Below, piece by piece: positions 1-64,000 of a DNA stretch of 64,000 nucleotides. The position numbers and the translations under genes are program-made. Below the pieces are notes generated by a model. That model was not told where the DNA came from, ran no database searches, and saw only the letters and a program-made list of their open reading frames with translations. Positions within the stretch are counted from its first letter, which is position 1, and every line of letters begins with the position of its first letter. The stretch lies in the sequence record LC739533.1. One strand, written 5' to 3'. This stretch comes from Escherichia phage phiWec179.

Positions 1-118
1 ACCCTACAGAAGAGCTAAACACGTCTTCCATAACAAGGCCCGTCTCGTCTCCATTTTCAGCCCAAGATAACCAAGCCTGATAAAAATCTAAAAGTAATTT
101 ACTTGATGCAATCTTCAT
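1..118 (-). CDS. paralog family A protein, N-terminal part only (gene runs off window start)
   Basis: ATG at 118 after GGAGAG; N-term MKIASSKLLLDFYQAWLSWAENG matches family A FYxxWLxW motif. Confidence 0.45.
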   Translation of the reverse strand, partial: MKIASSKLLLDFYQAWLSWAENGDETGLVMEDVFSSSVG

Positions 119-120
119 GC

Positions 121-309
121 TCACTCTCCTACACTTTCTGGTGTGCCATCCCAAGCACCTAAGACTTCTTTCAGGTGTGCACGGGGTTCTTTAAAATACT
201 CCTCCATTTTATCCAGAAGATCGTCTGTGTTTGGGCTGTATCCCAACATCCCACGTAAAACTCTTTCTTCTTGCAAGACCAACCATCTATGATAGCTTCG
301 AATCATAAT
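121..309 (-). CDS. hypothetical protein
   Basis: GGAGG + ATG at 309 (MIRSYHRW); tiled minus-strand ORF. Confidence 0.35.
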   Translation of the reverse strand: MMIRSYHRWLVLQEERVLRGMLGYSPNTDDLLDKMEEYFKEPRAHLKEVLGAWDGTPESVGE

Positions 310-721
310 ATTCCTCCAAGAGTTTCTCAATTCTCTGAACGGTCTTAGTATCCCAATAAACCTTATTAAAGTCAAGTGTTCCATGTGCATTTCTTTTTGT
401 TTCGAAGTAATAACCACCTTCCCGCTCCAAGCGATCACGGATCACTTCTATAAGATGATCCTTACCTATCTGCGTCAAACAATAATCATACTCTCCTTTT
501 AAGAGATCTATAGAAGGTTGACGGTTATCTCCAACCTGGGAAATCTTCCAATTTACCAATGATCCTTGTATACCAACGTCTGTCTGCTTCACAGCGAAGC
601 CTTTGGCACCCCAGCTACCCAACGTTACCACTAACAGGGCTTCTCCCGTCAGAGAGCGATTAAGCGTGTCGCTTCGGGGTTCACTTAAAGTTGAAAACCA
701 TTTAAGAATCTTTTTAAACAT
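287..721 (-). CDS. hypothetical protein
   Basis: GAGGAG + ATG at 721 (MFKKILKWF); tiled ORF. Confidence 0.45.
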   Translation of the reverse strand: MFKKILKWFSTLSEPRSDTLNRSLTGEALLVVTLGSWGAKGFAVKQTDVGIQGSLVNWKISQVGDNRQPSIDLLKGEYDYCLTQIGKDHLIEVIRDRLEREGGYYFETKRNAHGTLDFNKVYWDTKTVQRIEKLLEEYYDSKLS

Positions 722-782
722 TATATGCTCCTCTCGTTCAACATGCACAAACAATAACACCCTCCAAAGAGGGTGTCAATGA

Positions 783-992
783 TTAATCGATCACAAAAAA
801 CGTAGCGTTCAAACGTCTGAATGTCGCAGGGCTATATCCATGATCACACTCTTCAATGAACTGATCTGTAGTCTGATCGTAACTATAATACTGATCATTT
901 TGGAAATGGAAGGACGCACAGAACAAATCATTTCCTACAGTCCACACTGCCACAAAATTCTTACCGAACGGATAACCTTCAGCTACTTTCAT
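783..992 (-). CDS. hypothetical protein
   Basis: AGGAGGG + ATG at 992; tiled ORF. Confidence 0.4.
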   Translation of the reverse strand: MKVAEGYPFGKNFVAVWTVGNDLFCASFHFQNDQYYSYDQTTDQFIEECDHGYSPATFRRLNATFFVID

Positions 993-1003
993 TCTCCCTC
1001 CTC

Positions 1004-1273
1004 TTACCAAGAAACATACATAGAATACACAAAATCATTGCAGTCTGTCGTAAACGTCGCACTGCAACCTTGAGATCTGAATTTATCACAAATCCCGCGT
1101 ACAATCGAAGCTTGTAGTTCTTTACCTTTCGGTAGACCTAAAGCTTTTACTGGGTTCTGAATCGTCGTGCTGTAGTAACCCCCTTCTGCTGCCGTTGTAA
1201 TGAGGATTTCTGCTCGTTTGATATATTCAAAGTTCACAGAGTCAGCCAAAGCGTGTAAAGAATATGCATCCAT
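1004..1273 (-). CDS. hypothetical protein
   Basis: GAGGAGG + ATG at 1273. Confidence 0.45.
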   Translation of the reverse strand: MDAYSLHALADSVNFEYIKRAEILITTAAEGGYYSTTIQNPVKALGLPKGKELQASIVRGICDKFRSQGCSATFTTDCNDFVYSMYVSW

Positions 1274-1283
1274 TATAACCTCC

Positions 1284-1619
1284 TCAAGAACGATCGAGTT
1301 TCATTAAAAATACAATCATAGCTGCACGCAGTGGTTTATCGTCTTCACGGGACGGTACACCTTCTGTCTTCGCAAGCCAACCGCGAGGAAAACCATCTTC
1401 CCCTGTTACAGGGCTGATACAAATCCTATGTTTTACTATGATAGCCCAAGCATCTGCTGGATCATTGCAGTAATCATACCAAGTGTAATTGCCGTTGCAG
1501 TCATTCCCCACTGATCGTCCATCTGCATTGTGCGGATAACCTAAAGGCTTGACACCGTGGACTGCTGCAAACACACGCTTGTTGATTTCAAAATCACTCA
1601 TTACTCCATATTCTGTCAT
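1284..1619 (-). CDS. hypothetical protein
   Basis: AAGGAG + ATG at 1619; 111 aa, no motif recognised. Confidence 0.45.
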   Translation of the reverse strand: MTEYGVMSDFEINKRVFAAVHGVKPLGYPHNADGRSVGNDCNGNYTWYDYCNDPADAWAIIVKHRICISPVTGEDGFPRGWLAKTEGVPSREDDKPLRAAMIVFLMKLDRS

Positions 1620-1945
1620 GCTTTCTCCTTATCTTTGGATACTGGAAGGATATTGATCATAACAACCCCATCATATCCGTAGGTATCGTTGATTGTAGTT
1701 TCAACTTCACGTATGTCGGCTAAAGATGGAGGCCAATCTGTGAATTGCACATCAATATTACCTGTCCCGATAAAATTACCTTCTTCTGGTCTGTAGTTGT
1801 ATACAAACACAGCATCGTAACGAAACTCCTTCTGTTTGTTACGCTTCTTAAAAGTGCGGTCTAAGGCATAGATGCTTCCTATGACACATACCGCTACAGC
1901 AACAACAACAATGTTAAAATAGAGTTCTTGTAAAATTGCGCTCAT
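1616..1945 (-). CDS. hypothetical membrane-anchored protein
   Basis: N-terminal hydrophobic segment IVVVAVAVCVIGSIYAL; tiled ORF. Confidence 0.45.
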   Translation of the reverse strand: MSAILQELYFNIVVVAVAVCVIGSIYALDRTFKKRNKQKEFRYDAVFVYNYRPEEGNFIGTGNIDVQFTDWPPSLADIREVETTINDTYGYDGVVMINILPVSKDKEKA

Positions 1946-1947
1946 TG

Positions 1948-2277
1948 TTATTTACCCCCTTTCAGTTTTGATTTAACCCATGCCAACCGTTCTTTGTTCA
2001 TATGTTGCGTGCCGTGCTCATAATCCTGCATATAAGCTAAGTCACCAAATGGGTACAAGGTGTCTTGGAAATCTTTGAAAAGCATCTCTGCAAATGCTTC
2101 GTTAACTTCGTCAATTTCTTTTAATGAAAACCCTTGTTCCAGTAACCAGTAAGACAAAGAGTCGCAAAGCCTAACAAGTGTGCTGAAAGGTTTGACATTC
2201 TCTCTTTTCGGAGCCACTTTAGCCCAGGCTAACCATGCCTTAAGAAATTGTTGGATAATCACTTCGTTCTTTGTCAT
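1948..2277 (-). CDS. paralog family A protein (divergent member)
   Basis: AGGAG + ATG at 2277; FLKAWLAWAK...LYPF...KERLAWVKSKL resembles family A. Confidence 0.45.
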   Translation of the reverse strand: MTKNEVIIQQFLKAWLAWAKVAPKRENVKPFSTLVRLCDSLSYWLLEQGFSLKEIDEVNEAFAEMLFKDFQDTLYPFGDLAYMQDYEHGTQHMNKERLAWVKSKLKGGK

Positions 2278-2285
2278 TTTAGCTC

Positions 2286-2960
2286 CTATTTGATGTTCAG
2301 TTTGTTGAGCAGACGTTGAACCGTATAAGGGTGCCATGTGGTACTGCCACGAACGGTTTCAATTTTCTCTTCAGTAAAGATCTCTGCAATTCGAGTCAGA
2401 GATGCTCCTGCTTTCCTCATTAACGTCACTTTATCACGAAGCTTCTCTGCATACAAGACACTTTTATCATTTTTTCGAGGTTGTTTGTAGTCTTGACGTG
2501 ATTCTTTATACTTAGGGGAAGCAGATCCTAAAAGAACTCCTTTGCTCTTAGCTACTGCCAAACCTTTTTTGATACGATCTGCCATACCGCGAACTTCCTG
2601 TTCGGCGAGAACAGATAAAAGCTGGATAACCATCTTATCCGCATCTGGCATAATGGCGATCTTAACGTCGATCATTTCCAGCAAGATTGCTACCGAGGCG
2701 TTGTTACGACCTAAACGGTCCACTTTAGCTACCAGGAGGGTTGCTCCGGTAGCTTTACACATCTCAACAGCCTTGACAAGTTCTTTACGTTGCTTCCAGT
2801 CACCTTTACCTGAATAGAATTCAGAAAACTCTCCGATCACTTCAGCCTCCGGCACAGACTCCAAGAAGTAACGGATATCGTTCTCCTGACTCTGCATACC
2901 ATACTGGGCTTCGCCTTTCTTCTGTTTGGACAAACGGCTGTAAACAACAAACTTTTTCAT
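2286..2960 (-). CDS. serine recombinase (resolvase/invertase family)
   Basis: GAGGAG + ATG; YSRLS catalytic Ser box, VAKVDRLGR, MxIQLLSVLAEQE, C-terminal HTH; alignable by eye to gamma-delta resolvase. Confidence 0.8.
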   Translation of the reverse strand: MKKFVVYSRLSKQKKGEAQYGMQSQENDIRYFLESVPEAEVIGEFSEFYSGKGDWKQRKELVKAVEMCKATGATLLVAKVDRLGRNNASVAILLEMIDVKIAIMPDADKMVIQLLSVLAEQEVRGMADRIKKGLAVAKSKGVLLGSASPKYKESRQDYKQPRKNDKSVLYAEKLRDKVTLMRKAGASLTRIAEIFTEEKIETVRGSTTWHPYTVQRLLNKLNIK

Positions 2961-2970
2961 GATCAACTCC

Positions 2971-3177
2971 TCAATCGTTATTAGGCTTCCATTTTACAAA
3001 CTTGAAGCAGTTATTGTCAAGGAATTTATTGGCATCTTTTTCCTGTTTCCAAACGGTGCATTGTTCTTTAAGGGCTATCTGTTCATTCTGCACATCTGAT
3101 ACCACATCAGCAAGGAGGATCAGAAATCCCAAAAAGACCAACATCAATAACAGATTAAAGAAAGTTTGAAAACTCAT
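2971..3177 (-). CDS. small membrane protein
   Basis: GGAGG + ATG at 3177; hydrophobic FNLLLMLVFLGFLILL. Confidence 0.4.
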   Translation of the reverse strand: MSFQTFFNLLLMLVFLGFLILLADVVSDVQNEQIALKEQCTVWKQEKDANKFLDNNCFKFVKWKPNND

Positions 3178-52785: not shown

Positions 52786-53760
52786 ATGCAACTTGGTTTT
52801 CCAATCATTGATGTAGTGGTGTTGGTAGGTATTCTTGTTCTGTCGATCTGTGTTGACTTTTTTGGTCATCGTGAAAACAAGGAGATCTCTTTCAAATCCG
52901 CTGTGGCTTGGTCAGTATTCTGGATTGGTGTGTCTTTAGCCTACTACGGTTTTGTATACTTCCAGCACGGCGCAGCTTTTGCAAACTTATTCTTGAGTGG
53001 ATATGTGTTAGAGAAGTCGCTCTCGGTAGATAACTTGGTAGTGTTTGTAGCAGTGTTCTCCAGTTTCGGGATTAAGAGCACACACTTACAACACAAAATT
53101 CTACTCTGGGGTATTGCAGGTGCGATTGTCTTCCGAGGTGTGTTTGTAGCAGCAGGGACTTATCTGCTAAGTTTGGGTTGGTTTGTTAATATCATCTTCG
53201 GTGCTGTTATCCTGTTCTGTGCTTTTAAAATGGTAATGGCTGGCGGTGATGATGAAGAAGTGGATTACTCTAAACATTGGGCGACACGCTTTGTACGTAA
53301 ACTATTCCCAGTATCGGATCAGATGGATGGCGAGAAGTTCTTCACAATTAAGAATGGTGTTCGTGTAGCAACTCCGGCTCTGGTTTGTGTGTTCGTGATG
53401 GAAATGGTGGATGTGATCTTTGCAGTAGACTCGGTTCCGGCTGTAATTGCAGTGACACAAGAACCACTGCTTGTATTCTCTTCGATGCTCTGTGCAATCT
53501 TAGGCTTACGTGCTCTGTTCTTTGTTCTTAGTGTGGCCCTGAAGTATCTGGTTCACCTGGAAAAAGCAGTTATCGCAGTCCTGGTGTTTGTTGGTGTGAA
53601 ACTGATGTATCACCCGTTTGCAGAAACGCTGCACGCAAAAGTGAGCTTCCTGCCAGCGCATATTGACCCGACGATCAGCATGTATATCGTGCTTGGTACT
53701 CTGACCCTGGGCGTGATTGCAAGTTTCATCTTCCCTGAAAAAGAAGAAGCTACCGCTTAA
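52786..53760 (+). CDS. terC: TerC-family integral membrane protein
   Basis: multiple TM helices; two TerC-type motifs EKSLSVDNLVVF and AVDSVPAVIAV. Confidence 0.7.
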   Translation: MQLGFPIIDVVVLVGILVLSICVDFFGHRENKEISFKSAVAWSVFWIGVSLAYYGFVYFQHGAAFANLFLSGYVLEKSLSVDNLVVFVAVFSSFGIKSTHLQHKILLWGIAGAIVFRGVFVAAGTYLLSLGWFVNIIFGAVILFCAFKMVMAGGDDEEVDYSKHWATRFVRKLFPVSDQMDGEKFFTIKNGVRVATPALVCVFVMEMVDVIFAVDSVPAVIAVTQEPLLVFSSMLCAILGLRALFFVLSVALKYLVHLEKAVIAVLVFVGVKLMYHPFAETLHAKVSFLPAHIDPTISMYIVLGTLTLGVIASFIFPEKEEATA

Positions 53761-53767
53761 TACCAAT

Positions 53768-53792
53768 GAACCTCCTTCGGGAGGTTTCTTAC
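53768..53792 (+). terminator. hairpin terminator after TerC-family gene
   Basis: GAACCTCCttcgGGAGGTTTCTT. Confidence 0.5.
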
Positions 53793-53808
53793 TAACATAG
53801 GAGGAATT

Positions 53809-54159
53809 ATGTCTGTATATTTTGACGATGTTCAGGAATATGTTTGGTGTCTTTCTGGCACAATCTCGGAAGTAGAAGCTGCGATTCAAGAGGTTTTTCC
53901 TTACGCTTATGTAGAAGTTAAACAGGCACCTCCTATGGATCTTCCCCCTAATGTGGAAGCTTGTTGTGGTTCCGGCGAGGGTACAGTCATCCCAGTTCTG
54001 CGTTACGAACTACAAGCAGCAAGTGCAAATGTCGATGATATTATTACAGAAATTAAGGCGTATGGTTTCTGGACCTCTCCTTACGCTAAATGGGATAACT
54101 CTGACACTTGGGATTTATTCTTCTGGGATAATGAGACAGATGACGAGGTATTTCTGTAA
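53809..54159 (+). CDS. hypothetical protein
   Basis: AGGAGG + ATG; 116 aa. Confidence 0.5.
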   Translation: MSVYFDDVQEYVWCLSGTISEVEAAIQEVFPYAYVEVKQAPPMDLPPNVEACCGSGEGTVIPVLRYELQAASANVDDIITEIKAYGFWTSPYAKWDNSDTWDLFFWDNETDDEVFL

Positions 54160-54401
54160 TGAAAGTTGTTTGGGTTGTGTTTGAAAATATTTGTTTTGCA
54201 ATAGGTTTGTTCGTCATACTTTTTGTGTTGACAAACGTGATCAATGGTAGTAAAGTATCCCTATACAAAGACGGGGAGCAGATTTACTGCTTCTCTGGAG
54301 ATTTCAAACACACCTGTGTTAATATGCAGAAAGAAGAAACTCCACACCAGAAGTCAAGAGAAGATTTTGATTGGTGGTCACTACTTAATAACTTAAGATG
54401 A
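54159..54401 (+). CDS. small membrane protein
   Basis: N-terminal TM VFENICFAIGLFVILFVL. Confidence 0.45.
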   Translation: MKVVWVVFENICFAIGLFVILFVLTNVINGSKVSLYKDGEQIYCFSGDFKHTCVNMQKEETPHQKSREDFDWWSLLNNLR

Positions 54402-54410
54402 GGAGAAAAT

Positions 54411-55280
54411 ATGAAAAATATTCAGCCATTACCTGTAGTTGGGGATTTGTATTTCTTATCTGGTACGGGTTATTCCCCAGAAGCATTAGAAGTTAACAAG
54501 AACGTCTTCCGAGTGAAAGAAATAAGAGAAGAATGTAATGAAATTGTTTTCGAAGGTATTACTAATGGAGTTCTTCAGTATGCAGAGATGCGTAGCTGCT
54601 TCCAGCAACCTTTCCGCCCGTTGGCAGACGAGTATAAGATTGCGGTAAATATTGATGATCTTAAAAAAGAACCAGGGTTCGAAGCGTTCTCTACTTTTAT
54701 GGAAGATACGTATGTGGATGTAAAGAGATCTAACCTTTTCGCGGGGGATAATTTCCCTCACTTTGTGTCAGAGAAAAGTGATGGTTTTTCCGACTACGTG
54801 GATGCTGTAAACTATGATGTTTCTGAATTGACAGGAGAGCAGGATTATCTTCTGCTGTCTCCTAAAGATTTCATGCGCGTAATGTATGCCGTAGCCGAAC
54901 AGAAAAAGAAGAAAGAAAAGCTTGTAGCCAAAAAAGTTAAAAAGGTTAAAGGTAAACGTGCCAAAGGTGTTCCAGAACGTAAGCGCACCGTAAATAAGGC
55001 GACAGTCTTCTTTACCAGCGGTGAGCAATATACGATCAAAGGTTTTAAAGAAGTGGGTTACACTGCTGGCGGAAACCTTCTGTTCTTCACAGTTGCAGAA
55101 GAAGGAGAAACTTTTATCCGTTTTTCCAATATGTGGGAAATGTCTGTAGAAGATATTAAAAGTGTTGTTGTTTTAGGTGTACATAAGAGTTTCATTATTA
55201 ATCAAATCTCTGATTTCAGTGCACACTTGACAGCACCAGATTTCGAAACTACCACAACAAGCTTTAACTTCAAGGTGTAA
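54411..55280 (+). CDS. hypothetical protein
   Basis: GAGGAG + ATG; 289 aa; Lys-rich internal tract. Confidence 0.5.
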   Translation: MKNIQPLPVVGDLYFLSGTGYSPEALEVNKNVFRVKEIREECNEIVFEGITNGVLQYAEMRSCFQQPFRPLADEYKIAVNIDDLKKEPGFEAFSTFMEDTYVDVKRSNLFAGDNFPHFVSEKSDGFSDYVDAVNYDVSELTGEQDYLLLSPKDFMRVMYAVAEQKKKKEKLVAKKVKKVKGKRAKGVPERKRTVNKATVFFTSGEQYTIKGFKEVGYTAGGNLLFFTVAEEGETFIRFSNMWEMSVEDIKSVVVLGVHKSFIINQISDFSAHLTAPDFETTTTSFNFKV

Positions 55281-55283
55281 TGC

Positions 55284-55874
55284 ATGAATACCGAGAGAGA
55301 TTTAAAACTCTTGTGGTGGGAAGTGATGCAGGAGATCAAGGAGGATTTCCCTGTTTACTACAACATGCTACGTGAAGCTGGATATACGGCTTGCGTTAGG
55401 AACAAAGTGAATAACTCTTTCGGTTGGTGCAACTACCGAGAAAAGATTGTTGTTGTGAATTGGCACTTGCATAAAAACTCCACAAGGGATATGATAGTGG
55501 ACACAATGAAGCATGAGATTGCTCATGCGATCGACGGTTGTATGGGTAAGTTCAGTCGTCATGGACCACACTGGCAAAAGCTGGCAGCAGAGTTGGGAGC
55601 CAATCCTAAAGCTACTTCCAAAGAACCGTTAAACCATGAGTACAAATATGTTCTTGTTTTGGTGGACAGATTTGCCACAAGATGTGTTAGAGGGTATAAT
55701 CGTAAACCTAACCGTATGACTCCAGGGAAACAACCACATATTTGGTTGAAGAGTGATAAAGAGGGGACAGAAGGAAAAATATGGTTGTATAAATGGGAAG
55801 ATTGGGTTAAAGTAGCTAAAGAATATGGTGTTTCACCTTACACAAGAGAAATAGAAGAGGAGAATGAAGAATGA
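55284..55874 (+). CDS. SprT-like zinc metalloprotease domain protein
   Basis: HExxH in MKHEIAHAID; N-terminal SFGWCNYREKIVVVNWHL typical of SprT. Confidence 0.55.
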   Translation: MNTERDLKLLWWEVMQEIKEDFPVYYNMLREAGYTACVRNKVNNSFGWCNYREKIVVVNWHLHKNSTRDMIVDTMKHEIAHAIDGCMGKFSRHGPHWQKLAAELGANPKATSKEPLNHEYKYVLVLVDRFATRCVRGYNRKPNRMTPGKQPHIWLKSDKEGTEGKIWLYKWEDWVKVAKEYGVSPYTREIEEENEE

Positions 55875-56983
55875 CAAGTCCATTTTTGAAAGCGGCAACT
55901 GGTGGTCAAAAGAAATCTGAAACGAGTGTACTGACTGCTACTACAGATGCAAGCAAGTCCGTGTTCGCTCCGAGTGTCCTGGATGCAAGTCCAGTGTATG
56001 CTCCAGCAGCGCCAAAAGCTGTGCCTACCTTGCCAACAATGTCTCGTAAAGAGATTGAAGAAGTGGGTGCAGAAGCAGGTTTAACTCTCCGCACGCTGAA
56101 TGCCGAAGTGTTAAAGCACCAACGTAGCAATCAAGGCGATGAAATGAGCCAACGCCTTACCGCGCTGATTAAACAAGCCAAACAGCTTGATCCTGCTTCT
56201 ATCAAGCAGAGCAAAGGTGTAGGCAAACTTATCAAGAAACTGATGGGTATGAAGGAAGATCTGTTCGGGGAATTCGATAATGTGAACAACCGTATCGAAG
56301 AACTCGTTAAGAATCTTCAGATGGATATTCGTAAAGAAGAAGATTCTCTGGTGTACCTGGAGAAGCTGCACCAGGCGATCGGACAGTACGCCGCAAGCCT
56401 GAATCGTGATATGGAATTACTCACAGCAGCTTATGAGCAAGAACTGGCTAACTTTGAAGCTACGCCAGAAGATGACGTAGAAGCCCGTCAACGCGTCCGT
56501 GACACGCTTGATCTTCTGGAGATACGTATTGCTGACTTGAAGGCATTACGCTTGCTGTGCGTGCAAATGGGTCCGCGTGTATTGGGTATGCAGAAAGTAT
56601 CTGCCAGCCTCATGCGTTCTGCTCGTAATATTGTGAACAATGTGATTCCTGCTTACTCGGCAAACTTCTCGATGTATATTGAAAGTCTGCGCCAGAAGAA
56701 AGCAGCAGAAACACAGAACAACGTTCTGGACGAGTTCAACCTGGCAATCAAACTGGGTAGCGATCTTGCCACACAGAACCAGATCGAAGCAGCAGCACTG
56801 GCTAACCGCCAAGTGTTGGATATCGAAACTCTGCGTCACGATCAGGAGAACTTGGTTAAGATGTTGGAAGAAACTAACCGCATCAATACGGAAGCCCGTG
56901 CTGCCCGTGTTGATTACATCAATGAAGTTCAATCTCTCGAAGATGGGATGGTTGACGCTGTTAAGAAGGGGTTGGGTAAATGA
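55871..56983 (+). CDS. TelA-like (toxic anion resistance family) protein, tentative
   Basis: 370 aa, predicted long helices/coiled coil; size and Ter context fit TelA; no single diagnostic motif verified. Confidence 0.45.
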   Translation: MTSPFLKAATGGQKKSETSVLTATTDASKSVFAPSVLDASPVYAPAAPKAVPTLPTMSRKEIEEVGAEAGLTLRTLNAEVLKHQRSNQGDEMSQRLTALIKQAKQLDPASIKQSKGVGKLIKKLMGMKEDLFGEFDNVNNRIEELVKNLQMDIRKEEDSLVYLEKLHQAIGQYAASLNRDMELLTAAYEQELANFEATPEDDVEARQRVRDTLDLLEIRIADLKALRLLCVQMGPRVLGMQKVSASLMRSARNIVNNVIPAYSANFSMYIESLRQKKAAETQNNVLDEFNLAIKLGSDLATQNQIEAAALANRQVLDIETLRHDQENLVKMLEETNRINTEARAARVDYINEVQSLEDGMVDAVKKGLGK

Positions 56984-57186
56984 GAATCCGTGTATACATG
57001 CTTGACGAACAAGCTGGAGAAATAGGTGTTCGTTATGATGAAGAGAAACGCTTTGCCCCAATGACCCAGCTACAAACTCCAGATATTTTTGCAGCTTGTC
57101 GTGACGGATATATCTATGAAGGTTGTCGCAACTTTGGCAGATTTAAAGTTATTTCTGATGTGGAATTTAACGAGGAGGAAGAATGA
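56980..57186 (+). CDS. hypothetical protein
   Basis: 68 aa; ATGA overlap. Confidence 0.45.
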   Translation: MRIRVYMLDEQAGEIGVRYDEEKRFAPMTQLQTPDIFAACRDGYIYEGCRNFGRFKVISDVEFNEEEE

Positions 57187-57353
57187 AAACATTGCGTGTG
57201 AACATCGAAACTACCTGGCGAGATTTCGAGGTTGTTGATATTGAGATTGAAGACGATATGTCTCAAGAAGATATCGAAGATCTTGCAAAAGAAACATTTC
57301 AGGACTATTGTAATTACGGGTTCCATATTTTAGGGGAGGAAGAAGATGTTTAA
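57183..57353 (+). CDS. small acidic protein (56 aa)
   Basis: GAGGAGG + ATG; stop overlaps next ATG; below ORF-track cutoff. Confidence 0.4.
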   Translation: MKTLRVNIETTWRDFEVVDIEIEDDMSQEDIEDLAKETFQDYCNYGFHILGEEEDV

Positions 57354-57744
57354 ACACACAAACGTAAACTTGAAATTAACAGTAACAGATCCGACTCTTT
57401 TCATCAATCTTACAAGCGGGGAAGTTTATGAAGTTATCACAGACGAGGATGGTTCTTGCTTCCTTAAAGGTTATTATCTCTGTGAATCTGATGAGTTGGT
57501 ATCTATTATCACCTTGGGAGAATACGAAGAACCAGGCTTCCGTGTGGAGGTTGTTAAGAATCCCGATATTATCCAGTTGACTCGCCAAGAACTGATCACA
57601 ATCATGGAAGACGCTTTTATTGATGGATGGAAGACTCAAAACTATGATTGGAGTGGCCCAGAAGACTTCCTGCGTCTTCATAAAGAGTATGACGATTCCA
57701 GCGAAACTACTATTGCCATTGATAGTATTAAGGCTGGTGTGTAA
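57346..57744 (+). CDS. hypothetical protein
   Basis: 132 aa. Confidence 0.5.
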   Translation: MFKHTNVNLKLTVTDPTLFINLTSGEVYEVITDEDGSCFLKGYYLCESDELVSIITLGEYEEPGFRVEVVKNPDIIQLTRQELITIMEDAFIDGWKTQNYDWSGPEDFLRLHKEYDDSSETTIAIDSIKAGV

Positions 57745-57762
57745 TGAAAAGTGTTGACAACA

Positions 57763-57812
57763 ATCTCCATAAGATGGATAATACCTCCATCGAAAAAACG
57801 GGAGGAGATAAG
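57763..57812 (+). promoter_or_regulatory. promoter + leader hairpin
   Basis: TTGACA-N17-TAATAC, CCTCCatcgaaaaaacGGGAGG, then ATG 57814. Confidence 0.4.
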
Positions 57813-57813
57813 A

Positions 57814-58086
57814 ATGTTTGATTTTAAAATAAAGGATTCAAAACCCCAAGATGTAGCAGTTCGTTTCGAAGAGTTGGGGATTGGTGAAACTTTCATGTAT
57901 TATTCAGCATATGAAGAAAATGGTTTGGATACATTTGCAAACTTAGTATTCCTTAAAAGCGGCGGCGCGACTGCTGTTTGTTTGAATAGTTCATCAAGAG
58001 GGAGTGTCCATACCGTATCCCCAGATGTGCCGATGGTTGCAGTTCGTTTAGTAGTTACTGATATTACACTTACAGAGGAGAAATAA
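57814..58086 (+). CDS. small protein, paralog B1 (pairs with vWA gene)
   Basis: ATG at 57814 (MFDFKIKDSKPQ); paralog of 59108..59389. Confidence 0.45.
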   Translation: MFDFKIKDSKPQDVAVRFEELGIGETFMYYSAYEENGLDTFANLVFLKSGGATAVCLNSSSRGSVHTVSPDVPMVAVRLVVTDITLTEEK

Positions 58087-58087
58087 T

Positions 58088-58888
58088 ATGTCCAATAAAA
58101 TTAGCCTGAAGAAACGCCAAGACACCCTGACCATTTCACTGAAGAAAAAGAAAATTGTCAACGAAGATCAAAAGATCGTTCTGCGTGTTGCAAGCGCACT
58201 GGATATCTCCGGCAGCATGTCCAGCCTGTATCGTAACGGTACTGTAAGTGAGTTTGTTGGTAAGCTGCTTCCGTTTGGTATGCTGTTCGATGATAACGCG
58301 CAGATCGATATGTGGGCTTTCAACAATAGCTCTCGTGAAATCACTCCAGCAACTGCTGATGTGTATGATGATTACGTTGGTAAATGCATTAATGGTCGTG
58401 TAACAGTCCAGGGTGGCACAAGCTATGCACCTGTTATGCAGGATATTTACGATTCCTACTTCGGTAGCACCACTAAATATGAAACTGTAGAAACCCCTGT
58501 AACCAAAGAAGTTCCTAAGAAAGGTTTCTTCAACCGTTTACTGGGTAAAACCGAAACTGTAGAAGCTATTGTAGAAAAAACTGTAGCCGTTGCTGTGCCT
58601 GGTGTAGACGTTACTCCGGCAGTTGTGTTCTTCCAGACAGATGGAGAGAACGATGATCCGAGCCGTGTACTCTCCGTACTGGAAAAGAACAAGGGTAAAC
58701 CTATTTACTGGTTCATGGTGGGTGTTGGTAGTGCTCGTTTCTCTTTCCTGAAAGATTTGGCTGAAGCTTACGACAACGTAGCATTCATTGGTCTGAACGA
58801 TCTTTCCTTGACAGACGAGCAGCTTTACGATAAACTCTTGTCTGAAGAGTTCGGTGAGTGGGTTGAAAAGGTTGGTGCTAAGAAATGA
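58088..58888 (+). CDS. vWA-domain protein with TerD-like N-terminus (TerY/TerF-like)
   Basis: N-terminal KISLKK..ISLKKK; MIDAS DISGSM, GGTSYAP, QTDGEND. Confidence 0.65.
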   Translation: MSNKISLKKRQDTLTISLKKKKIVNEDQKIVLRVASALDISGSMSSLYRNGTVSEFVGKLLPFGMLFDDNAQIDMWAFNNSSREITPATADVYDDYVGKCINGRVTVQGGTSYAPVMQDIYDSYFGSTTKYETVETPVTKEVPKKGFFNRLLGKTETVEAIVEKTVAVAVPGVDVTPAVVFFQTDGENDDPSRVLSVLEKNKGKPIYWFMVGVGSARFSFLKDLAEAYDNVAFIGLNDLSLTDEQLYDKLLSEEFGEWVEKVGAKK

Positions 58889-59127
58889 TCGACACGCTGA
58901 TCTCTCAAACGGTGTTGCAAGTGATGCGTGAGAGAGAAGCTTTCATCATGAAGGGTCTTAAAGATTATTTTGGGACTCTTTCTTTGGAAGAACTCAAACT
59001 ACGCGTTGAGATCCATGCGTATCCTTCTTATGAAGAATGGATTGACAAAGCAAATAAAGCTGTTATAATGCGTATCAACAAACCAGAAATCACGACAGGA
59101 GGACAAGATGTTAAATTTCGCCATTAA
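58885..59127 (+). CDS. hypothetical protein
   Basis: 80 aa; ATGA overlap. Confidence 0.45.
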   Translation: MIDTLISQTVLQVMREREAFIMKGLKDYFGTLSLEELKLRVEIHAYPSYEEWIDKANKAVIMRINKPEITTGGQDVKFRH

Positions 59128-59389
59128 GAAAGATAGCAAACCAAAGATTCAGACTTGTCGCATTGCAAATCTTACACATGGTGATTTGTTTGTTCTGAAA
59201 AGTGCCTACGACGAAGACGGTCTTGATCCAGAAGCAGTCGTCGTTTATATGGTGTTGCGGCGAGATGAAGACACCAAGCACCCATACAATGCGGTAGAGA
59301 TGAATTACAATGCAATGTTGTGCTCAATACACTATACGGCAGAGTTGGTGCAGGTAGAGTTAACAGTTAACGAAATTAAACTTAAATAA
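59108..59389 (+). CDS. small protein, paralog B2 (pairs with TerD gene)
   Basis: AGGAGG + ATG (MLNFAIKKDSKPK); paralog of 57814..58086. Confidence 0.45.
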   Translation: MLNFAIKKDSKPKIQTCRIANLTHGDLFVLKSAYDEDGLDPEAVVVYMVLRRDEDTKHPYNAVEMNYNAMLCSIHYTAELVQVELTVNEIKLK

Positions 59390-59404
59390 TAGAGGAGACA
59401 CATA

Positions 59405-60007
59405 ATGAGCGATAAAATTTCCCTGAAAAAAGGTTCCACCGAGAAGATTTCCCTGAAGAAAGTTGCTCCGGCACTGAAAGAACTGCGTCTGGAGTTCTCC
59501 TGGAAATCAAACTCTAAACTGGATCTGGATGTAAGCGCACTTGTATGCCGACACAACGCCTCTGGCAACCCTGAAATGCTGTCTGCACGTCATCTGGTTT
59601 GTTATGCTAACAAGTTTGATCCAGAACGTTCTGTATTCGCAGGTGATGATGTTCGTGACGGTACTGGTCAAATGGAACAAATCGATGTAACCTTGGCTAA
59701 GATCTCCGATAAAGCCGAAGAGATTGCTTTTGTCCTAACTATTGATGATGAAACGGGTCAGAAACGTCTGGGTCACGCTACTGAAGGTATGCTGAAGATC
59801 TTTGATGCCGAGCGTAACGTTGAGATCCTGGACTTCGACTTCTTGGCTCCTGAAGTGGCTGGTAATACCATCTGCCACGTAGCTTCCCTGGTTCGTGAAG
59901 ACGGTGAATGGAAACTGAAAGCTTACGGTGTTGGTAAAGCAGGTATGGATATCTGTGATGTGGTTATGGCCTTCGGTGGTCAGAAAGAATGGTACGATTG
60001 CCCGTAA
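59405..60007 (+). CDS. terD: TerD-family (tellurium resistance / Ca-binding) protein
   Basis: alignable by eye over full length to canonical TerD: N-terminal ISLKKG..ISLKK, LDLDVSAL, GDDVRDGTGQMEQIDV, IAFVLTIDD, GEWKLKAYGVG. Confidence 0.9.
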   Translation: MSDKISLKKGSTEKISLKKVAPALKELRLEFSWKSNSKLDLDVSALVCRHNASGNPEMLSARHLVCYANKFDPERSVFAGDDVRDGTGQMEQIDVTLAKISDKAEEIAFVLTIDDETGQKRLGHATEGMLKIFDAERNVEILDFDFLAPEVAGNTICHVASLVREDGEWKLKAYGVGKAGMDICDVVMAFGGQKEWYDCP

Positions 60008-60104: not shown

Positions 60105-60626
60105 TTGCTGATAAAAAACTTTGTAACAGTTGCGTTACTATCCTTAACTGCTTTTACATTTACACCTGTCACGGCAACCGCCGAAGCTGCAAACGTAAAG
60201 ACTGCTAAAGTAGTTCACAAATGTGCAAAGCAAGATACTAAAGAAAATCTCTTGGCTTGTGCAATTTACGCTGAAAGTCGTAATCAGGGTAAACGTGGGA
60301 TGTATGCTGTAGGTAATGTAGTATTGAACAGGAAAGGTGATGATTACTTCCCTGATAATATTAAAGATATTCTCTTCCAACGAGGACAATTCTCTTACAG
60401 GAAGAAGTTTAACGTTACCGAAGCAGAGCGATGGAAAGAAGCTAAAGCTATCGCAAAACGACTTATATACCTGGATACACACTTCCCTACACTTAGAGAA
60501 GCCCAGGACATGACAAAAGGTGCGACATTTTTTAAGAAAGTAAAAACCCGTGCACACTGGACAAAAGATATGGTCTTAGTGTATCGTTATAAAGAACATC
60601 AGTTCTACCTACCGACAAGGAGCTAA
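60105..60626 (+). CDS. SleB-like cell wall hydrolase with signal peptide
   Basis: AAGGAGG + TTG start; signal-like FVTVALLSLTAFTFTPVTATAEA; LACAIYAESRNQGKRGMYAVGNVVLNRKGDDYFP...QRGQFSY. Confidence 0.7.
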   Translation: MLIKNFVTVALLSLTAFTFTPVTATAEAANVKTAKVVHKCAKQDTKENLLACAIYAESRNQGKRGMYAVGNVVLNRKGDDYFPDNIKDILFQRGQFSYRKKFNVTEAERWKEAKAIAKRLIYLDTHFPTLREAQDMTKGATFFKKVKTRAHWTKDMVLVYRYKEHQFYLPTRS

Positions 60627-61323: not shown

Positions 61324-61887
61324 ATGATTTATTATATTACCCCCTATCTAAGTGGAGATATCGGCAAAGCAATTAACGATGCTATTGCCGTTCTTCACGA
61401 AGATAGTTGGGTCTGTTTACGTGATATCGATACCATGTTCTTACTGCCAGACCAACCTTCTATGTTGGAAGATTTGGTAGCAACCAATCCACCGTTTGAT
61501 GTGATCGGTGCGTCTTGTAATCGTTTAGGTAGTGGTTATCAACTTCTCGGTGGAAAGATTGATGATGATCCTAACATTCTGAACCATATTTCTCATGCCA
61601 AAGTTGCTCGTGATTACTATGGTGATGAAATTGAAGAAGTCCCACAAGGCACTCCCTTAGCAGGTTTCTTTCTATTGTTCAGGAAATCATTATGGAAGGA
61701 GATCCCTTTTGAAGAACGTACCATCCAGTTCGATATAATCTTCTCAAACACTTTACATGAACGAGGAAAAAGGTTAGGATTGATGCGTGGGATGTATCTC
61801 TTCCATATTTACCGTTTAGGTCAAAAAGATCCTCAACGGGCAATATCACACCTTATGCATTGTCATGATCACCGGAAAACTATTTAG
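61324..61887 (+). CDS. hypothetical protein
   Basis: AAGGGG + ATG; 187 aa. Confidence 0.5.
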   Translation: MIYYITPYLSGDIGKAINDAIAVLHEDSWVCLRDIDTMFLLPDQPSMLEDLVATNPPFDVIGASCNRLGSGYQLLGGKIDDDPNILNHISHAKVARDYYGDEIEEVPQGTPLAGFFLLFRKSLWKEIPFEERTIQFDIIFSNTLHERGKRLGLMRGMYLFHIYRLGQKDPQRAISHLMHCHDHRKTI

Positions 61888-61895
61888 GGGGAAAG

Positions 61896-62579
61896 ATGGA
61901 AAATATTAAAATTGGGGTTGGCGTTATCACTGTAGGTGTTCGTCCACTTAAAGATTACATGGTTGCACCTGGTGTAGACTTCAAAGTGTTTCACGATCCC
62001 GATCGTAAAGGTGTAGCTTATGCTCGCAACCAATTAATGAAACAGTTCTACGATGAAGGTTTTGACTACTGGTTCATTTTTGACGATGATTGCTATCCGG
62101 TTAAACGTGGCTGGGAAGAATACTTCGTTAACCAGGCTGTCGAGAATGGTTGGGACTTCTTCGGTATGCCAGAATACTTCAAAGATACTGTGATAGGTTG
62201 TTCTGGAGAAGTAGTCTTCTGGGAATTGGCTATGTGTCAGTTTGCAATGTATTCTCGTGCAACTGTTGAGACGATGGGTTATTTCCGTCCTTATACACAC
62301 GGATATGGTTTCGAAGATGCAGAATGGACTAATCGTCTGAAAGCTTCAGGTTTGAATAAAGGACTCCAGGGCGTACCTTGTCCGATGCGCATTATGGCGT
62401 ACATTCACCCCGACGATGTTTTCGGTGATAACCCTTTACCTTTTGCTAATCTGACAAAAGAAGAGAAAGAATCAGCAATCGGGATCAATTGGGAAGAATA
62501 CAAACTGTCTTTGGAGGATATTAATAATGGCAAAACACACATCTCTTTTGAAGAGGCTGAAGGATATGGCGTTAAATAA
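61896..62579 (+). CDS. GT-A-fold glycosyltransferase-like protein
   Basis: N-terminal IGVGVITVG, DxD-type FIFDDDCYP, downstream GYGFEDAEWTNRL. Confidence 0.5.
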   Translation: MENIKIGVGVITVGVRPLKDYMVAPGVDFKVFHDPDRKGVAYARNQLMKQFYDEGFDYWFIFDDDCYPVKRGWEEYFVNQAVENGWDFFGMPEYFKDTVIGCSGEVVFWELAMCQFAMYSRATVETMGYFRPYTHGYGFEDAEWTNRLKASGLNKGLQGVPCPMRIMAYIHPDDVFGDNPLPFANLTKEEKESAIGINWEEYKLSLEDINNGKTHISFEEAEGYGVK

Positions 62580-63513
62580 GAAACCAACCCTACTGTGTGA
62601 CAACAAATTCAACAGTGGTTGTGATTACCATCGCATTGTCATGCCATTTTCTAACACAGAGATCAAGCCACGTACTGATGTACTGGTCTTTAACCGCATC
62701 TTCTCGAAGGGTGCTGATGAAGTAGCCAAACTTAAGCGCCAAGGTGTTAAGATTGTTGTAGATTTGGATGATTTCTATCAATTGAATCCAGAACACTACC
62801 TGGCGCATCTGTACGCGCCAAACACCCGCACAATCGTGGAAATGGTTAAAATAGCAGATATTGTCATTGTCACAACCGAATACCTGGCGTACAAAGTTCG
62901 TCACTTAAACTCTAACGTTGTTGTGATCCGAAATGCTCTACCGTTTGATGATGGTCAATTCACTCTCTCGAATGATCGTACTTCGGGTACGCCTATCATT
63001 TGGGCTGGAGGTGCGAGTCATGAACCGGATTTACGTTTGCTTTCAAACACTTTTGATGATAGTTTATTGTCTATCGCAGGGTATGAAGCGAGCAGCACAG
63101 TGACAGGGCAAGAGTGGGTTAAGATCCGCCGTAGTTTGCCTAATGCGCAGTATAAACCTGCTGTAGATTCTTTGAATCATTATATGTCTGCATACGATGG
63201 TCATGCTATGGCTGTAGCTCCGTTAGTAGATAACGACTTCAACCATTGCAAGAGCAACCTGAAAGTATTAGAAGCTGGTGCTAAAGGCATTCCAATCGTT
63301 TGTTCTAAGGTATTACCTTACTACAACCCGATCGATGCCCGTGCAGTAACCTTCGCAGATAGCAAAGCAGAGTGGCACTATGAAGTTGTAAAACTACTTC
63401 GTAATCCAAACTACCGCGAAGATCGTGGACTGTTCTTGGCTGAACATGTTCGTACTCACTACAACTTGAAGGATGCAAACGAATTGCGTCGTCAAGTGAT
63501 CGAAAGTCTGTAG
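62566..63513 (+). CDS. glycosyltransferase-like protein (tandem paralog 1; start uncertain)
   Basis: start at 62566 chosen by alignment to paralog N-terminus (alternative 62527); CDYHRIVMPF, DLDDFYQ, NALPFDDGQFTLSNDRTSGTPIIWAGGASHEPDL. Confidence 0.45.
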   Translation: MALNKKPTLLCDNKFNSGCDYHRIVMPFSNTEIKPRTDVLVFNRIFSKGADEVAKLKRQGVKIVVDLDDFYQLNPEHYLAHLYAPNTRTIVEMVKIADIVIVTTEYLAYKVRHLNSNVVVIRNALPFDDGQFTLSNDRTSGTPIIWAGGASHEPDLRLLSNTFDDSLLSIAGYEASSTVTGQEWVKIRRSLPNAQYKPAVDSLNHYMSAYDGHAMAVAPLVDNDFNHCKSNLKVLEAGAKGIPIVCSKVLPYYNPIDARAVTFADSKAEWHYEVVKLLRNPNYREDRGLFLAEHVRTHYNLKDANELRRQVIESL

Positions 63514-63519
63514 GTGTTT

Positions 63520-64000
63520 ATGGGACAAATTATTCTTGACAATCGTGGTGGAAAAGAATATAGTGTCTGTGATTATCACCGAGTAATGCTGCCTTACACA
63601 AGGCAGTTCTCGGCCCAACCGTCACAGAACGTATATGTCTTTAACGGTGTCCCTACGAAAGGGAAACAAGGCTTCATAGCCCTTAAGAGCATGGGCTTTA
63701 AGATGGTAATGGATTTGGATGACTCTTTAAACATTCCCCAAGGCCATATGCTGGAAGACATTTTTGATGCAGGTATTCGAGAAGACTTGCAATGGTTCCT
63801 CGAACGCAGTGATCTTGTAACGACAACAACCCCTGCTCTCCAGGTGGAATTGTCCCAGTACAATCCTAACGTGCATATTATCCCAAATGGTTTACCGTTT
63901 GACGAGGATCAGTTTACGTTAACTCGTGATCGCTACTCCAAGTCCCCTGTAGTTTGGGCTGGAAGTGAAACACACAAGCAAGACCTGGCTCTACTACCGA
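63520..64000 (+). CDS. glycosyltransferase-like protein (tandem paralog 2; 3' end beyond window)
   Basis: AGGTG + ATG; CDYHRVMLPY, DLDDSLN, NGLPFDEDQFTLTRDRYSKSPVVWAGSETHKQDL. Confidence 0.45.
   Translation, partial: MGQIILDNRGGKEYSVCDYHRVMLPYTRQFSAQPSQNVYVFNGVPTKGKQGFIALKSMGFKMVMDLDDSLNIPQGHMLEDIFDAGIREDLQWFLERSDLVTTTTPALQVELSQYNPNVHIIPNGLPFDEDQFTLTRDRYSKSPVVWAGSETHKQDLALLP

Follow-up and report, generated by a model that had tools for sequence, protein, structure and literature searches.

We analyzed a 64,000-nucleotide stretch of Escherichia phage phiWec179 (LC739533.1), referred to here in its full length as the window. It ends (61324-64000) in four consecutive plus-strand glycosyltransferase (GT) genes, two of the GT-A and two of the GT-B class. 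These genes, here called the cassette, are a candidate system for O-glycosylation of virion proteins, foremost the major capsid protein. For phiWec181, whose record LC739534.1 (Escherichia phage phiWec181/186) is 100% identical to the window, we rate this function as about evenly poised between right and wrong, and our confidence is higher for the version of the cassette carried by small siphophages. In those phages the cassette is mobile and lies beside capsid and packaging genes, and it co-occurs with short threonine tags at the C-termini of the major head and tail proteins. The glycan would probably contain rhamnose. The link between cassette and tag was not described in the literature searched; the GT annotation and a puzzle concerning rhamnose are already in print, and the proposed function belongs to a known kind, phage virion glycosylation, carried out with non-homologous enzymes.

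Phages phiWec181/186 are myoviruses of approximately 154 kb in the Stephanstirmvirinae, and the phiWec181 group was lately proposed as the genus 'Wecvirus' (PMC12548472). The initial annotation, made from the window sequence, had drawn a comparison with T4-type phages; the lineage is instead the phAPEC8/phi92 group of the Stephanstirmvirinae.

Glycosyltransferase Genes and Predicted Folds

The four genes and their PHROG matches, all of which carry a glycosyltransferase label (E=1e-66 to 1e-138), are as follows.

61324-61887, + strand: gene 1, minimal GT-A, 187 aa; PHROG 14179 (E=1e-102); invariant D34-x-D36
61896-62579, + strand: gene 2, GT-A, 227 aa, with FIFDDDCYP; PHROG 2456 (E=6e-74); invariant D63-D64-D65
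62527 or 62566 to 63513, + strand: gene 3, predicted GT-B (GT4-like), 328 or 315 aa depending on the start; PHROG 7162 (E=4e-138)
63520-64000, + strand, cut by the window end: gene 4, predicted GT-B paralog of gene 3, 314 aa in full; PHROG 7162 (E=3e-66)

Gene 4 stops at window-equivalent position 64464, and its full length was taken from LC739534.1. Gene 3 has two candidate starts, ATG 62527, which is preceded by GGAGGA 8 nt upstream, and ATG 62566, which is the choice of the GenBank record. The genes are closely packed (an 8-nt gap, an overlap, and a 6-nt gap), and each is preceded by a Shine-Dalgarno-like site (AAGGGG upstream of gene 1). Predicted isoelectric points (pI) for genes 1 to 4 are 5.8, 4.7, 7.2, and 5.1, making three of the proteins acidic and one neutral.

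The initial annotation described a cluster of three GT genes. These three are present, but the count is four, since gene 1 (61324-61887) had gone undescribed. The peptides quoted at that time were recovered: FIFDDDCYP in the 227-aa open reading frame (ORF) at 61896-62579, CDYHRIVMPF and IIWAGGASHEPDL in the ORF ending at 63513, and CDYHRVMLPY and VVWAGSETHKQDL in the ORF that starts at 63520 and runs past the window end. The last two genes had been read as tandem paralogs, and the comparison bears this out. In BLASTP, the part of gene 4 within the window (160 aa) aligned with gene 3 at 37% identity (E=2e-34), and the full-length proteins aligned at 40.6% identity over 303 aa (E=2e-75); judged from these alignments, their paralogy is far beyond chance. 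The duplication is old, being found in Phapecoctavirus, in Justusliebigvirus, and in the phiWec181 lineage.

The AlphaFold2 model of gene 3 (predicted local distance difference test score, pLDDT, 94.7; predicted template modeling score 0.91) has a GT-B fold with two Rossmann-like domains. Foldseek returned 256 PDB matches at E<=0.001, and the top 50 were GT4-like GT-B proteins with the exception of one entry for a trehalose-6-phosphate phosphatase N-terminal domain. The best neighbors (GlgM, PimB', TarM, SdgB, BshA, PglA, Gtf3/GtfC, and SenB; E about 1e-9, template modeling (TM) score about 0.6) act on very different acceptors. Alignment of the GT-B family gave 45 invariant columns, including CDYHR, DxDD, and KSNLKxLEAGxKG, the last of which is the C-terminal nucleotide-sugar-binding motif region; gene 4 keeps all 45. 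The Pfam families Glyco_trans_1_2 (PF13524) and Glyco_trans_1_4 (PF13692) score below cut-off in the GT-B protein of the window and are among the precomputed matches of many homologs. Genes 3 and 4 are GT4-like glycosyltransferases of the GT-B fold according to this model.

Genes 1 and 2 have the GT-A fold with a conserved DxD motif. The AlphaFold2 model of gene 1 has a pLDDT of 92.5, and its listed Foldseek matches in PDB were nearly all GT-A enzymes (RmlT, COLGALT1, LH3, K4CP, SpsA), together with two UDP-glucose pyrophosphorylases. These matches are weak (E about 1e-3, TM-score 0.4-0.5). The best of them, the dTDP-rhamnose transferase RmlT (E=9e-4), is the sole hint toward a dTDP-rhamnose donor. 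D34 and D36 are invariant in the gene 1 family. Gene 1 had no Pfam match at E<=1 and no PDB sequence match. Gene 2 matches Pfam GT2 (PF00535) at 19.5 bits against a gathering cut-off of 23.3, and its matches to TAGT and Glyco_transf_7C are also below cut-off. The DDD motif (D63, D64, D65) is invariant in its family alignment, and hhalign related this family to a Pfam GT2-positive phage family with 98% probability (E=2.7e-13, 192 columns), as expected from the initial assignment of the DxD protein to the GT-A class. Genes 1 and 2 are remote relatives of Pfam Glycos_transf_2 that fall outside the family by the Pfam threshold. Fold recognition, which had been put forward as a check, thus gave GT-B for gene 3 and GT-A for gene 1.

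Other searches added little. Sequence searches against PDB gave nothing usable for any of the four proteins or for the GT-B profile, NCBIfam gave no match for any cassette protein, and hhalign found no relationship of the gene 1 family to the PLOD-type GT family or to the gene 2 family. The fold models of the four proteins have no transmembrane features. A phmmer match of gene 3 residues 34-66 to the AI-designed four-fold-symmetric TIM barrel 7mcd (E=1.7e-10, four stretches) was rejected as a repetitive beta-alpha-beta artifact.

Distribution and Mobility of the Cassette

Conservation of the cassette extends to at least 54 phage records when DNA is compared and to 142 when proteins are compared. 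Phapecoctavirus and Justusliebigvirus (phi92-like) keep the order of four-gene cluster, 92-aa acidic ORF, and primase/helicase. The BASEL phage Bas60 has an identical four-gene cassette, annotated as putative glycosyltransferases and 'disaccharide synthases'. The genes are thus already annotated as glycosyltransferases in public records; the literature searched contained no paper on the function of the cassette genes.

Relatives of gene 3 extend well beyond these genera, to 782 representative clusters (E<=1e-30) and at least 572 IMG/VR stretches, and the bacterial matches examined were prophages. No version of the cassette lacks the GT-B gene, its universal component. When neighbors were clustered across 82 loci, the GT-B gene always adjoined a GT-A gene on the same strand; this partner was gene-2-like at 29 loci and belonged to a homologous GT2 family at 35. 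Some loci add genes for a hexapeptide acetyltransferase, a PLOD-type GT, or a sugar-O-methyltransferase-like protein; ParB_N, terS, and terL follow. The presence of acetyltransferase, PLOD-type GT, and O-methyltransferase-like genes suggests that divergent versions of the cassette make a decorated glycan. Some GT-B relatives are fused to TPR protein-binding repeats. ParB_N-domain genes of approximately 180-410 aa adjoin the cassette in many loci, and the longer ones are taken as putative ParB-methyltransferase-type fusions.

A cassette of homologs of genes 1-3 is mobile among small siphophages, where it lies beside capsid and packaging genes. The siphophage homologs of genes 2, 3, and 1 are 42-43%, 46-48%, and 45-46% identical to those of the window. 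In two loci of our collection (L023 and L034) the order is terminase, portal, protease, major head, GT-A (gene-2-like), GT-B, GT-A (gene-1-like), head-tail adaptor, neck, and major tail, and in another (L186, the same as L020) the cassette directly follows the capsid gene. A Pseudomonas silvicola prophage has a gene-2-like gene, a gene-3-like gene, a metallopeptidase, terS, and terL. In an Enterobacter huaxiensis prophage the lysis genes are followed by a gene-1-like gene, an NAD-dependent sugar epimerase/dehydratase, gene-2-like and gene-3-like genes, HNH, terS, terL, and capsid. Streptomyces phage Zuko has a 41%-identical epimerase and a GT-B gene directly before terminase. Phages with the cassette, including this Streptomyces phage, range from 31% to 65% GC.

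Several versions have features of their own. A two-gene version (gene-2-like plus GT-B) occurs at L006, L021, L022, L026, and L028, and directly upstream of it at L006 is a 143-aa Thr/Ala-rich protein that looks Ig-like by eye. In an AT-rich environmental clade (L041-L087) the cassette is preceded by a conserved protein of approximately 171 aa and an 83-aa membrane protein. One relative (P0265) has a sigma-70 region 2 domain fused to the GT-B, which suggests that the 171-aa protein is a sigma-like late regulator.

C-Terminal Threonine Tags on Capsid and Tail-Tube Proteins

In siphophages with homologs of genes 1-3, the major head and major tail proteins end in -PTT, occasionally -TTT or -ATT. 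The ends observed are as follows, and those at L027 and L040 are similar.

L023, L025, and L034: head ...GPFAAPTT; tail ...SGTGGPTT
L007: head ...YGANTTT; tail ...TTTANPTT
L019: head ...YSANPTT; tail protein not found in the locus
L020: head ...ELTVAPTT; tail ...RALLEPTT

PHROG scans placed the tagged head proteins in three unrelated families (PHROGs 10, 617, and 247) and the tagged tail proteins in two (PHROGs 158 and 584). Within the L023 capsid family, a T-rich tail is present at every locus with a GT match and in none of more than 30 cassette-less relatives. The nearest of these relatives stop at ...FVYGAF, and the tag is therefore an extension of four to five residues. In the L020 capsid family (80 relatives, 88-100% identity) only 1 of 80 has the cassette, and only there do the capsid and the tail protein end in -PTT; the others end in ...MIELTPAA or ...TTTPPAGG. 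Pooled over loci, a PTT end occurs on 16 of 323 ORFs at loci with the cassette and on 1 of 3822 at loci without it, counts that include closely related contigs. A permutation test on C-terminal tripeptides shared within each locus was dropped because family-conserved endings inflate its null, which left it uninformative, and family-matched controls were used instead.

Other C-terminal ends were observed in these capsid families. Capsid-protease fusions of the phrog_617 type (L145, L146, L162, L164, L147-L151, and L182) have ends of the -GS/-TS type. Those in -GQGS, -GQTS, and -AIGS are at loci with only a gene-2-like GT-A nearby, and those in -TAGS and -SAGS are at loci where no GT was detected. 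These -GS ends resemble that of mycobacteriophage Che8 and may represent a second pairing of tag and enzyme. Members of the L023 capsid family with no cassette within 8 kb (L119-L124, L135, and L137) have a Pro/Thr-rich tail, ...GVGPTPTP.

The major capsid gene of phiWec181 lies outside the window. Capsid ends and cassette status in Stephanstirmvirinae and three Vequintavirinae are as follows.

phiWec181 and PsgM04F: four genes; capsid ...LTTA
Nernie (phi92-like): cassette presumed from phi92-like genomes, which carry two GT-B copies; capsid ...LTTA
Phapecoctavirus (nieznany): four genes; capsid ...LTTA
Klebsiella phage KP13-26: gene 1 and one intact GT-B; capsid ...LTTA
Klebsiella phage FBKp34: C-terminal GT-B remnant only; capsid ...STMS
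Vequintavirus DrSchubert: no cassette (inferred from record counts); capsid ...ATLKGE
Mydovirus Seu621 and Henunavirus Hena1: no cassette (inferred from record counts); capsid ...TGTFA

The Nernie record has no taxonomy, and its label as Justusliebigvirus is based on 91.6% capsid identity. Absence of the cassette from Vequintavirinae was deduced from the number of phage records with a capsid homolog (868) compared with those with the GT-B (142), and not genome by genome. Co-variation of capsid tail and GT-B within the Stephanstirmvirinae, which involves one loss event, gives thin support to virion glycosylation.

Proposed Mechanism and Sugar Supply

Mycobacteriophages glycosylate proteins of the capsid and the tail tube with glycosyltransferases of their own (Freeman 2023, as reported in PMC12363180). 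In the mechanism we propose, the GT-B encoded by gene 3 would begin O-glycosylation of the major capsid protein at the threonines of its very C-terminus, and in siphophages it would also act on the tail-tube protein. Genes 1 and 2 (both GT-A) and gene 4, the second GT-B gene, would encode the enzymes that then lengthen or branch this glycan. Because the GT-B is the sole universal component and has TPR-fused relatives, we infer that protein O-glycosylation starts with this enzyme and that it reads the threonine tail. The folds, the gene context, the mobility, and the co-occurrence of cassette and tag are observed, whereas the tail as acceptor, rhamnose in the glycan, the order of the enzymes, and the extension to phiWec181 itself are proposed.

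Donors would be host nucleotide sugars and dTDP-L-rhamnose made by the phage RmlABCD enzymes. The dTDP-L-rhamnose pathway is complete in the phage, with rmlB (split over the record ends), rmlA, rfbC, and rfbD at LC739534.1 positions 1-3127, outside the window. The pathway has also been noted in Phapecoctavirus and phi92-like phages (PMC7552041), and its presence together with GT genes in the DNA-metabolism region, in phages with no protection from restriction, has been recorded as a puzzle (PMC7552041, PMC8594841).

Several observations weigh against virion glycosylation. The phiWec181 capsid ends in -LTTA rather than the -PTT of siphophages, 137 kb of PsgM04F scanned contained no second virion protein with an -LTTA-like tail, and by our estimate two or three of approximately 280 genes would have 'TT' within the last four or five residues by chance. 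The phiWec181 cassette lies between the endolysin and primase/helicase genes, with nrd genes upstream and DNA polymerase downstream. Tight gene spacing and a first strong terminator-like hairpin located past primase/helicase suggest that it is co-transcribed with replication genes, although promoter and terminator scans did not rise above shuffled sequence. In small phages, the slot upstream of terS is one that DNA-modification genes also typically occupy, and neither the capsid nor the cement protein of the P. silvicola prophage with the two-gene version (L006) carries a -TT tag. Since related contigs are included in the co-occurrence counts, independent events are few, approximately five siphophage lineages and one loss in Stephanstirmvirinae. 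BLAST found no homology between Che8 gp108-110 and the cassette proteins. The assignment of the cassette family to protein glycosylation comes from sequence, models, and context. A scan of PsgM04F virion proteins for long Ser/Thr-rich tails found none, the only enriched stretch being the portal C-terminus.

Taken more broadly, the data may describe a widespread system that is non-homologous to the mycobacteriophage one, in which a GT4-like GT-B and one or two small GT-A enzymes read a transplantable C-terminal tag (x-P-T-T-COOH in siphophages, -LTTA in phi92/phAPEC8-type phages) and build an O-glycan coat, containing rhamnose in Stephanstirmvirinae. We put the chance that this whole account is correct at somewhat under one half. 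The literature searched contained no glycosylated capsids with C-terminal tags outside actinophages, no link between the cassette and a C-terminal threonine tag, and no prediction that phi92/phAPEC8-type capsids are glycosylated. If the account is true, virion glycosylation would extend from actinobacteriophages to phages of Gram-negative bacteria, and phage genera used in E. coli cocktails and therapy would carry an unnoticed sugar coat, which could affect recognition by antibodies. It would also explain why dTDP-rhamnose synthesis occurs alongside restriction sensitivity, and the short tag with its two- or three-enzyme set could be used for deliberate glycosylation of phage particles. If it is false, the four genes would be phage glycosyltransferases of an ordinary kind, annotated as such already.

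Genomic Setting and Neighboring Genes

Just upstream of the GT genes is a full Ter-type cluster (49897-60007, + strand), which includes the following genes.

50498-51154, + strand: HAD-like hydrolase
51147-51974, + strand: ComF-like PRTase_3
51984-52466, + strand: Macro domain
52783-53757, + strand: TerC
55281-55871, + strand: SprT-like
55868-56980, + strand: TelA
58088-58888, + strand: vWA-TerF-like
59405-60007, + strand: TerD

In composition it is similar to the 'Ter-dependent' systems for nucleoside-like metabolites that have been predicted in bacteria. A functional link between the Ter-type cluster and the cassette was rejected, as no other context of the cassette contained Ter genes. Between the Ter-type cluster and the GT genes is a SleB-like cell-wall hydrolase (60105-60626, + strand), called 'endolysin' in relatives. 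The Rz-like spanin and the terminase are encoded in a distant part of the genome.

Downstream, a 92-aa, very acidic ORF (pI 4.1) overlaps the gene 4 stop (window-equivalent 64464-64742; 15465-15743 in L001, a part of phiWec181). It travels with the cassette in Stephanstirmvirinae, being 48% identical in KP13-26 and reduced to a remnant in FBKp34, and it has no family match. The first strong terminator-like hairpin occurs only after primase/helicase. Promoter and terminator scans gave counts no higher than in shuffled sequence and were uninformative. GC skew changes sign near 36 kb (window positions 1-36000 compared with 36000-64000), which matches a switch from minus-strand to plus-strand genes in relatives.

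Four records (OR584014.1, MG065645.1, MG065689.1, and OP562383.1) have 70-98% protein identity to E. coli Stephanstirmvirinae in the cassette region. They are labeled as Pseudomonas phage PsgM04F, Campylobacter phages A145 and A110a, and Acinetobacter phage ABPW7, and these host labels look doubtful.

Alternative Explanations

The initial annotation favored DNA glycosylation, in which sugars such as rhamnose are added to hydroxymethylated or otherwise modified bases and protect the genome from nucleases as in T-even phages. The setting in a replication and nucleotide-metabolism region, with nrd genes on one side and primase/helicase and DNA polymerase on the other, agrees with this idea, and Olsen et al. 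proposed rhamnosylation of hydroxymethylated nucleotides in dTDP-rhamnose-producing relatives (PMC7552041). Gene 2 has weak matches to TET-associated GT (Pfam, E=0.002) and to a beta-glucosyl-HMC alpha-glucosyltransferase PHROG (E=3e-7), and the ParB_N-domain genes adjoining the cassette in small phages occupy a position regarded as typical of DNA-modification genes. A hydroxymethylase was sought with the ThyA PROSITE-type active-site pattern, a search that is not exhaustive, and the pattern was absent from the window, from phiWec181 parts L001 and L005, and from positions 1-136,994 of PsgM04F, which is 95.6% identical to the phage of the window; the dCMP (or dUMP) hydroxymethylase expected for a T4-type pathway was therefore not seen in these sequences. 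The only thymidylate synthase homolog found is ThyX-type and divergent (331 aa; 30 bits against an NCBIfam cut-off of 87.9, with the match limited to residues 19-173). It is encoded outside the window and followed by an NT5C-like deoxypyrimidine 5'-nucleotidase and, nearby, a 242-aa MazG/PRA-PH-like pyrophosphohydrolase, the latter being relevant to the dCTPase that had also been proposed as a check. Together these three genes (PsgM04F L088, 15247-16852 and 22145-22873, - strand) could in principle alter the pyrimidine pool, and they are the main loose end in favor of DNA modification. MazG-like genes are common in phages with unmodified DNA. Phages of 30-50 kb carry the cassette, and no base-hydroxymethylation family was among their recurrent neighbors (flanks of approximately 10 kb, no targeted scan). 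T4 alpha- and beta-glucosyltransferases were not in the top 50 structural neighbors of gene 3, PDB sequence searches gave no match to them, and the cassette proteins are acidic or neutral, although pI is only weakly informative as a proxy for DNA binding. Restriction data, which are published for relatives and not for phiWec181 itself, point the same way. Typed by HincII restriction fragment length polymorphism (RFLP), the ESCO collection contains five Phapecoctavirus members (ESCO5, ESCO13, and ESCO25 being three of them) and three Justusliebigvirus (ESCO8, ESCO9, and ESCO32); HincII resistance was seen only in ESCO10, the Dhakavirus ESCO47, and the Tequatrovirus ESCO58, with the Phapecoctavirus and Justusliebigvirus members in cut RFLP groups (PMC10269720). 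We found the cassette in ESCO5, ESCO13, ESCO25, and ESCO32. The phi92-like BASEL phages, whose member Bas60 carries the cassette, are 'exceptionally susceptible' to restriction-modification systems (PMC8594841). With no hydroxymethylase signature, a ThyX-type enzyme only, and restriction-sensitive relatives, a T4-like DNA glycosylation scheme is unlikely in phiWec181. Sparse or site-specific modification may still be compatible with the restriction data. DNA glycosylation also leaves the capsid and tail tags unexplained, and we regard it as very improbable.

Rhamnose is a known substituent of E. coli lipopolysaccharide (LPS) and O-antigens, and the lysis-terminase slot of temperate phages also hosts conversion genes. 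Both facts suit a different explanation, in which sugars are added to LPS core, O-antigen, or enterobacterial common antigen (ECA) precursors, which would mask receptors and thereby exclude superinfection or prevent loss of progeny on debris. GT4-like and GT2-like enzymes are usual for LPS and teichoic acid synthesis, the structural neighbors of the cassette proteins include PimB', TarM, PglA, and RmlT, and LPS outer core (waaT) and probably ECA are the receptors of phiWec181 and its relatives (PMC12548472; PMC8594841). Against this, the cassette occurs in phages of 31-65% GC, a Streptomyces phage among them, whose hosts have unrelated envelopes, and this spread makes a host-specific envelope glycan unlikely as a common acceptor. 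Several phages hold it inside the head-tail morphogenesis operon, which implies late expression rather than a prophage-expressed position. No GtrA/B/C-type membrane partner, flippase, or polymerase accompanied it in the loci examined. Modification of host surface polysaccharide, which the initial annotation had offered as its alternative, therefore stands as a rival that fits the distribution poorly, and we consider it unlikely. The same cross-phylum spread suits a conserved host target as well as a virion target, and TPR-fused GT-B relatives point to protein substrates generally. The acceptor might be a conserved host protein, as in rhamnosylation of the EarP type, or a small molecule associated with the Ter-type cluster, whose PRTase, HAD hydrolase, Macro domain, TerC, TelA, and TerD genes precede the phiWec181 cassette; tight spacing suggesting co-transcription with early or middle genes would agree with such roles. 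Ter genes are missing from all small-phage contexts, however, and placement in late operons or among structural genes in siphophages is unexpected for a host takeover function. Acceptors of this kind, for which we see a rather slim chance, do not account for the -PTT tags any more than envelope modification accounts for the tags on capsid and tail.

Comparison with Known Systems

GT4-type enzymes such as PimB', TarM, SdgB, BshA, PglA, and Gtf3/GtfC resemble the GT-B proteins of the cassette in fold and in the C-terminal nucleotide-sugar-binding region. The cassette GT-B proteins differ in being only 11-15% identical to them, in their short length (315 aa), and in having their own invariant N-terminal CDYHR and DxDD motifs. 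The T4 alpha- and beta-glucosyltransferases are likewise soluble, phage-encoded GT-B enzymes, and in both cases several specificities occur in one phage group. T4 belongs to another phage family, and the hydroxymethylase pathway of T4 was not found here; the differences extend to the restriction sensitivity of the cassette-bearing relatives and the position of T4 enzymes outside the top 50 neighbors.

Phage-encoded glycosylation functions are also known from GtrABC serotype conversion, where membrane proteins transfer sugars from undecaprenyl phosphate and the genes are next to the integrase. The cassette proteins have no transmembrane features in their fold models, and their genes are in replication or late operons. 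In giant viruses (chlorovirus PBCV-1 and mimivirus), capsids and fibrils are glycosylated without host machinery, by glycosyltransferases and rhamnose-nucleotide synthesis that the virus itself encodes. Like phiWec181, these viruses have their own nucleotide-sugar pathway and transferases, and mimivirus R655 is among the structural neighbors of gene 1. Their hosts are eukaryotic and their capsid proteins unrelated, and the comparison is not one of specific homology.

A close parallel to the proposed virion glycosylation is in mycobacteriophages, where the systems reported are Che8 gp108-110, Corndog gp38, and Myrna (Freeman et al., 2023, in the account given by PMC12363180). The phiWec181 lineage differs in its Gram-negative hosts, in its own dTDP-rhamnose pathway, and in its duplicated GT-B. 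Che8 gp108-110 are only of GT-A type, one with a C-terminal region that looks methyltransferase-like by eye, whereas the constant part of the cassette is a GT4-like GT-B. In gene order the two are similar: Che8 has its GT genes gp108-110, the small ORF gp111, and an HNH gene at the terminase-proximal end of the genome, and the Enterobacter prophage likewise has HNH between the cassette and terS/terL. They are also similar in their virion proteins, as both capsid and major tail protein end in -GS in Che8 and in -PTT in the cassette siphophages.

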